From a virus (Duplodnaviria > Heunggongvirae > Uroviricota > Caudoviricetes), in the IMG/VR virus record IMGVR_UViG_2695420687_000018: a stretch of DNA of 2,649 bases. One strand, written 5' to 3'. Below are positions 2,587 through 2,649 of the stretch, one piece after another. How positions within the stretch are numbered: the first letter of the stretch is position 1; each line of letters begins with the position of its first letter. Position numbers and translations under genes: made by a program. The notes below the pieces were generated by a model. It made no database searches. It saw nothing but the letters and a program-made list of their open reading frames with translations, and was not told where the DNA came from.

Positions 2587-2622
2587 ATTTCCTTGTCAGC
2601 GAAAAAAATTGCGGATAAGGTG

Positions 2623-2649
2623 ATGAACACATCAGATTTCCTGGTGTAA
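2623..2649 (+). other. 8-codon ORF (MNTSDFLV-stop) with an upstream SD-like GGATAAGGTG, at the position where baseplate gene V would be expected; identity unresolved
   Basis: ATG 2623-2625 is followed in frame by AAC ACA TCA GAT TTC CTG GTG and TAA at 2647-2649, which is the window edge. GGATAAGGTG at 2613-2622 looks like a ribosome-binding site. In P2-like genomes the next gene after S is V, but this frame terminates after 8 codons. Confidence 0.25.

Follow-up and report, generated by a model that had tools for sequence, protein, structure and literature searches.

DicF and IpeX of lambdoid remnants are regulatory sRNAs encoded by prophages. In P2-like phages the interval between genes S and V is one of three classical moron sites, occupied by orf30 in P2 and by a 741-bp ORF in R18C (PMC6823313). 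In E. coli and its relatives the sRNA gene dsrA is found in the order yedP - dsrA - yodD. Stem-loop 1 of DsrA, the end of the RNA pairing with the rpoS leader, covers nucleotides 4-22 (NMR study, PMC5766208), and the AT content of the dsrA promoter spacer matters for the promoter (review, PMC2613000). Described here is a stretch of viral DNA of 2,649 nt (hereafter the window, meaning the whole sequence analysed), in which late genes of a P2-like phage run directly into dsrA. Both elements are known; their join is new among everything searched.

Positions 1-2585 of the window correspond to the P2-like late genes Y', K, lysA, lysB, lysC, R and S, all on the plus strand. The window starts in frame inside the P2-type holin gene Y, of which the last 71 of 93 codons are present (1-216); the complete gene, matching PF04550, lies at 7802-8083 of prophage locus L013, equivalent to window -65 to 216. 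Y is followed by K, an endolysin of 165 aa annotated as glycoside hydrolase family 24 / K lysozyme (216-713), by lysA (728-1153, 141 aa, PF28015 LysA) and by lysB, encoding a Rz-like spanin of 141 aa (1141-1566), assigned from the ORF list and annotated relatives. The Rz1-like spanin gene lysC (1466-1711, PF23793) overlaps both lysB and R; its start is placed as in L013 (9333-9578, 81 aa), and other callers begin it at 1553. The tail completion gene R (1674-2141, 155 aa, PF06891) and gene S, encoding a tail completion / virion morphogenesis protein of 150 aa (2134-2586, PF05069), complete the series. S is of full length and ends with a TAA stop.

All this part is 100% identical to prophage L020, and 99.9% identical to several other prophages. 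The exact S protein is found in complete, intact-looking P2-like prophages. Searches with the whole window in 5,426 complete E. coli genomes and 50,697 phage records retrieved many matches at 97-99% identity, all ending at positions 2576-2585. At position 30, within the holin gene, A marks the lineage of the window, and G is found in the other P2-like lineages compared.

The initial annotation had singled out the end of S as the only place where the window leaves the P2 layout, and this is borne out, phage identity ending at 2585. The window leaves the L020 lineage at 2586, the third base of the S stop codon, which is TAA in the window and TAG in L020. In the three other S-V sequence types examined divergence sets in at exactly the same point, the S stop codon.

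The same annotation expected baseplate gene V directly after S, an expectation that the relatives correct. P2 itself has orf30 there (PMC6823313), and the closest relatives feature 1.2-1.9 kb of cargo. In relatives with an identical S, the gene ends with ...CTGAATCGCTAG and continues as CTTTAATCATCTGAG...; a hairpin, an IS200-family transposase and a 389-aa ORF on the other strand then precede V. The hairpin, AAAAGGCCAGTTATTGGCCTTTT, is located about 95 nt past S. Slots with differing cargo were delimited at L013 10454-12351 (also in L014, L015 and L021), L012 10454-11715 and L003 22587-23526. Their contents are of three types, an IS200-family transposase (144 aa) plus the opposite-strand 389-aa ORF, a lone ORF of 347-357 aa, and a 261-aa ORF. 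No significant Pfam or PADLOC family was recognized in the S-V cargo ORFs of these relatives, a single Pfam match being below threshold, so these ORFs may be uncharacterised accessory or defence genes. Two further variable sites were observed in the LD27-1 prophage. The first, upstream of the portal gene, encodes a DprA-like and a hypothetical protein (L003 10756-13015); the second, after the tail-fibre assembly gene, encodes a HEPN-domain protein (L003 28647-29579). Both look like candidate defence cargo.

The DNA that follows S in the window is of host-chromosome type. It consists of the dsrA promoter from -39 and of the first 24 nt of DsrA, and holds no coding start. Window 2587-2649 is identical at 63/63 positions to the -39 to +24 segment of the chromosomal dsrA gene in a metagenome contig (L025 8781-8843), and at 62/63 positions to nearly every E. 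coli genome. Matches to bases 2579-2649 were detected by blastn in 5341/5426 complete E. coli genomes (E about 1e-22 to 3e-24), always at a single, unannotated site between yedP and yodD; the same bases match none of 50,697 phage records. The matching chromosomal site is recognized by Rfam as DsrA (RF00014), with 102.5 bits in L001 and 92.9 bits in L025. Only 24 nt of the RNA lie inside the window, and nothing in it reaches the gathering score of RF00014 (60 bits); at permissive thresholds window 2626-2649 is identified as a 3'-truncated DsrA (model positions 1-24, 26.7 bits, E 0.0011). In the alignment, DsrA nucleotide +1 corresponds to window 2626.

The promoter region (2587-2625, plus strand, -39 to -1) is identical to L025 over its whole length and to E. 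coli from 2592. By alignment, the native promoter appears to be kept in the window, from -39 to -1 as in L025 and from -34 to -1 as in the E. coli loci examined. It includes TTGTCA (2593-2598), a 17-nt A/T-rich spacer with an A7 run (2599-2615), and TAAGGT (2616-2621), followed by GATG. A scan against the promoter consensus did not call the dsrA promoter, TAAGGT fitting the consensus at 3/6 positions. For this reason the two hexamers, which we take to be the -35 and -10 elements of dsrA, were assigned by position, by their resemblance to the consensus, and after the promoter reportedly described by Repoila & Gottesman 2003. The first 24 nt of DsrA (2626-2649, plus strand, RF00014) are cut by the window edge. 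Stem-loop 1, in contrast to the RNA as a whole, is complete; folding predicts a 7-bp stem closed by an AUUUC loop (2636-2640) at 2629-2647, with an energy of -7.5 kcal/mol, and the sequence is that of E. coli DsrA. Judging from the identity to dsrA, the RNA is expected to continue past 2649 as CGAATTTTTTAAGTGC.... A minimal promoter of 36 bp has reportedly been delimited in dsrA-promoter studies.

The same bases had been read as the opening of a gene. All the features then listed are indeed in the sequence. Past the S stop (2584-2586) comes an interval of 36 nt (2587-2622), in which an A7 run spans 2602-2608; a purine-rich stretch, GGATAAGGTG, is found at 2613-2622, ahead of an ATG at 2623; the frame opened by this ATG translates as MNTSDFLV and terminates at TAA 2647-2649, the last bases of the window; TGATGA occurs at 2621-2626. 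Their meaning is different. The 27 nt of the reported ORF (2623-2649, plus strand) are dsrA from -3 to +24 read as codons, and not a gene. The ORF stop corresponds to DsrA nucleotides 22-24, Rfam placing 2626-2649 at DsrA 1-24, and the same 27 nt are found in the E. coli dsrA loci examined and, by blastn, in 5341/5426 genomes. Since the ATG occupies -3 to -1, upstream of the RNA 5' end, transcripts initiated at the dsrA promoter do not include it. The case for a good ribosome binding site is weak, as AAGG ends 2 nt before the ATG; GGATAAGGTG covers the dsrA -10 region, which explains these bases better. The 8-codon ORF by itself is no more than expected by chance, while the identity of the tail to dsrA is far beyond it.

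A relation to V had been suspected too, either as a frameshifted or disrupted gene or as one starting slightly downstream. The likeness to the start of gpV is restricted to 8 nt, ATGAACAC, encoding MNT (window 2623-2630, L004 5653-5660). These 8 nt are common to V of Wphi and of O157 prophages, and after them the window follows dsrA exactly. About 0.07 matches of 8 nt are expected, by our estimate, for the lengths compared, and the identity between dsrA and gpV is a chance one; it is because of it that the DsrA 5' end resembles a truncated V start. Comparison with gpV reveals no similarity past these 8 nt, and no later start of V occurs in the visible sequence. That the tail encodes a small peptide or leader preceded by a strong ribosome binding site, or a V gene in any of these forms, is consequently most improbable, in spite of the purine-rich run before the ATG and of an MNT start as in gpV. 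What was first posed as a broken or tiny gene after S is accounted for by known elements. The 5' end of a sRNA gene can mimic a mini-gene with ribosome binding site, ATG and stop, and here it mimics even the MNT of gpV.

The dsrA allele of the window is a rare one. E. coli has T, not C, at 2591, and differs further just upstream. A metagenome scan for the allele with C at 2591 retrieved a single contig, L025, in which yedP, dsrA and yodD are in their normal order. Across the locus L025 shares 85-94% identity with E. coli, Salmonella and Klebsiella being far more distant; its YodD has about 95% identity with the E. coli protein and 83% with that of E. fergusonii. On these comparisons the tail is assigned to an Escherichia-type chromosome other than E. 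coli, and this origin may be the reason for which the junction is missing from complete E. coli genomes. The L025 and E. coli loci differ also in SL3, the terminator stem-loop (CCCGACCCGUACAAGGGCCGGG at L025 8880-8907, CCCGACCCCCUCAGGGUCGGG at L001 6108-6135). Two non-standard pairs are flagged by Rfam in SL3 of L025; SL1, SL2 and the promoter are identical to E. coli.

Phage and chromosomal DNA meet at 2586-2591, in the sequence CTGAATCGCTAAATTTCCTTGTCAGCG. Phage identity ends at 2585 and the chromosome-type sequence runs from 2587; base 2586 is A, unlike both parents, which have G (phage) and T (chromosome). ATTT (2587-2590) may represent a 4-nt microhomology, as some phage lineages read TAG-ATTT at the junction. 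S keeps its full length and its stop, and the core promoter of dsrA is whole, with 6 nt to spare. In the first BLAST alignments the overlap between the S stop and the chromosome was inflated by a variant of E. coli H5 and H6, in which the dsrA -35 is preceded by ATCGCTAAT, against ATCGCGAAT in most E. coli (L001 against L002, 6001-6010).

Scans of species-representative genomes, viral contigs and metagenome contigs retrieved no copy of the exact 32-nt junction, which is missing from the 50,697 phage records too, and in a junction-centred BLAST of 5,426 complete E. coli genomes no locus covers both sides. These genomes host about 1,800 P2-like copies, none of which has dsrA within reach of S. 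Places encoding exactly the same S protein continue with the usual cargo, not with dsrA, in 10/10 cases among the matches listed. The window joins a phage structural gene cleanly to the promoter of a global stress regulator. A join unique among all collections searched raises the suspicion of an artefact, in which the last 63-64 nt would derive from a chimeric read or from a wrong join where a contig ends, the real S leading into the usual cargo, CTTTAATCATCTGAG.... The foreign DNA is brief and located at the very end of a short sequence, base 2586 fits neither parent, and every relative with an identical S gene continues differently. Such an accident would nevertheless have to break the sequence exactly at the stop codon, between parents that share at most 4 nt and hence offer no k-mer-sized overlap for a graph mis-join. 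It would also have to involve the rare allele with C at 2591, a genuine one otherwise present in one metagenome contig only, which argues for a real host background. An assembly chimera is unlikely, and less likely than either of the two biological explanations discussed below.

The initial annotation had also proposed that the junction of an inserted element could be found at this place. Non-phage DNA does start here, which comes close to this proposal. An att junction (attL or attR) was considered and dismissed, because the join is at S, mid-map, and not near int or ogr, and touches the promoter side of dsrA. The hypothesis that the yedP-dsrA interval is a P2 attachment site, with an internal deletion in the prophage, was likewise discarded, the interval being uninterrupted in 5334/5341 E. 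coli genomes. The exceptions to an intact yedP-dsrA-yodD order are seven, and the two examined are IS insertions.

We favour by a small margin, with a probability of about 0.42, the interpretation that a prophage was truncated and fused to the chromosomal dsrA gene, the window showing the end of what is left of it. A single illegitimate recombination event would have joined phage and host DNA, at a microhomology of at most 4 nt (ATTT) and with one non-parental base. The deletion would have begun just after S and ended 39 nt short of dsrA, taking with it the cargo, the genes from V to ogr, attR and the host DNA in between. Beyond the window the order dsrA-yodD-dsrB-rcsA would be encountered. 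The dsrA gene would retain its core promoter and lose all native upstream DNA, and would directly follow the phage late O-to-S operon without an intervening terminator. In a remnant devoid of ogr this operon should be silent, and DsrA would then be made from the core promoter alone. If so, the locus would be a case of ordinary prophage decay leaving dsrA with its core promoter only.

One event suffices for this outcome, and decay of prophages by deletion is common. A genuine chromosomal allele matches the tail at 100% identity, and no phage-borne dsrA was found in any phage record or viral contig searched. The orientation also fits. With a prophage located at yegR/yegQ (L003, L028), S reads toward yegQ-bae-mdt...dcm-yedP-dsrA, and dsrA is on the same strand. 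The dsrA neighbourhood hosts other rearrangement end points, as the IS1 found exactly at dsrA +1 in strain F41. Several observations weigh against the deletion. The phage-side break falls exactly on the S stop, with TAA regenerated, an outcome with a chance of about 1 in 10,000 if the break had occurred at random in a 33-kb prophage, and this is the very point at which the three S-V sequence types examined begin. The host-side break spares the core promoter by 6 nt. All seven phage ORFs in the window are intact and identical to those of functional-looking prophages, and there is therefore no sign of decay. From the yegR/yegQ site a large deletion would be needed, presumably of about 150 kb and including his and the O-antigen cluster. 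Finally, no such junction is present in any collection searched.

The coincidence of the break with the left edge of the variable slot is what a different history would predict. A P2-like phage may have exchanged the contents of its S-V moron site for a host fragment carrying a self-contained dsrA (core promoter, RNA and terminator), V being located beyond the window. This is possible, and only somewhat less probable than the deletion. The break lies exactly at the left edge of the slot, where the three examined types diverge, and S-V is a documented moron site (PMC6823313). Retention of both the S stop and the whole core promoter of dsrA fits a moron architecture of promoter, gene and terminator, and the phage genes show no decay, with 100% identity to intact prophages. 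If the 2,649-nt window is a whole assembly contig, its end inside dsrA fits with dsrA being a repeat in the sample. The comparison of window ends with repeat boundaries is nonetheless inconsistent, since 29 nt are common before the first lineage SNP at the left end and 58-63 nt at the right end, values that do not agree with one k-mer size.

The acquisition of dsrA as cargo would moreover be unprecedented, and would demand two junctions, the second beyond the window. No recurrence of dsrA as cargo was detected in the other P2-like phages and prophages searched. No copy of the gene is present among 50,697 phage records or, in scans with three distinct exact patterns, among 2.9 million viral contigs, and no P2-like prophage of the 5,426 E. 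coli genomes has it in the S-V slot; as none was found in phage records, in viral contigs or near S in E. coli, a phage-borne dsrA is without precedent. No Rfam RNA was identified in the S-V slot of the six P2-like prophage loci scanned, and a literature search retrieved no mention of phage-borne dsrA or of dsrA as a prophage junction. The dsrA matches labelled as plasmid are pieces of chromosome with a wrong label, and do not represent mobile copies of the gene.

A capture of dsrA anchored by IS200 was considered, since the nearest relatives have an IS200-family element after S, and E. coli 7/2 has IS200C after dsrA, both in the same orientation. For these copies the model failed, which also counts against an acquisition as cargo: the element found after S in the relatives and IS200C after dsrA in 7/2 share only 35 nt at 83% identity.

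Were dsrA carried as cargo, lysogens would gain an extra copy of DsrA, with more RpoS translation and less H-NS silencing. In lytic growth, late read-through from the O-to-S operon would give rise to a 5'-extended DsrA, tying its output to induction. The phage would be the first found with a copy of a core Hfq-dependent sRNA, complete with the core (thermosensing) promoter. The P2 S-V slot would then be able to take up host regulatory RNA genes, a new class of lysogenic conversion acting by tuning of RpoS and H-NS.

Under either history, the window can be compared with chromosomal dsrA, with the moron slot of its phage, and with other loci at which mobile DNA adjoins a sRNA gene. The promoter and the rpoS-pairing stem-loop 1 are common to the window and to chromosomal dsrA (RF00014, yedP-yodD interval). 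The chromosomal gene is preceded upstream of -39 by yedP-dsrA intergenic DNA, and its usual neighbour is yedP; in the window the place is taken by phage gene S. The chromosomal RNA measures about 87 nt and includes SL2, SL3 and the terminator, whereas the window ends after 24 nt. The S-V moron slot of Peduovirus starts at the S stop codon, exactly where the window departs from its relatives. Known contents of the slot are AT-rich foreign ORFs or IS elements; the window has host core DNA there, encoding a non-coding RNA.

The dsrA locus is seen as a rearrangement end point or insertion point also in strains F41 and 7/2. In E. coli F41 (L029 6249-6265, NZ_CM135134.3) the yedP-dsrA homology stops one base before dsrA +1, where IS1B begins, with ybcL and ybcM next to it; an IS1-mediated rearrangement appears to have removed dsrA and the neighbouring yodD-rcsA-fli region from the locus in this strain. 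In E. coli 7/2 (L030 1840-2560, NZ_CP023820.1) IS200C is inserted directly after the dsrA terminator, before yodD and in the orientation of dsrA. Both events are IS-mediated and left an IS at the junction, in contrast to the clean join, free of IS, of the window.

A P2-type prophage adjoins a conserved Hfq-dependent sRNA gene also at cyaR/ogrK. CyaR (RF00112, 100.7 bits) is located at L003 36683-36768, some 100 nt past ogrK, where the LD27-1 prophage has its right end, and is the sole Rfam RNA in the six P2-like prophage loci scanned. That adjacency results from site-specific integration, and involves the ogr/attR end of the prophage and the 3' side of the sRNA gene, whereas the window joins S, mid-map, to the promoter side. 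If dsrA were phage cargo, the closest parallel would be offered by DicF and IpeX, likewise phage-carried Hfq-dependent sRNAs acting on host mRNAs. These are phage-specific genes, in contrast to the dsrA of the window, a core sRNA gene of the host provided with its own promoter.
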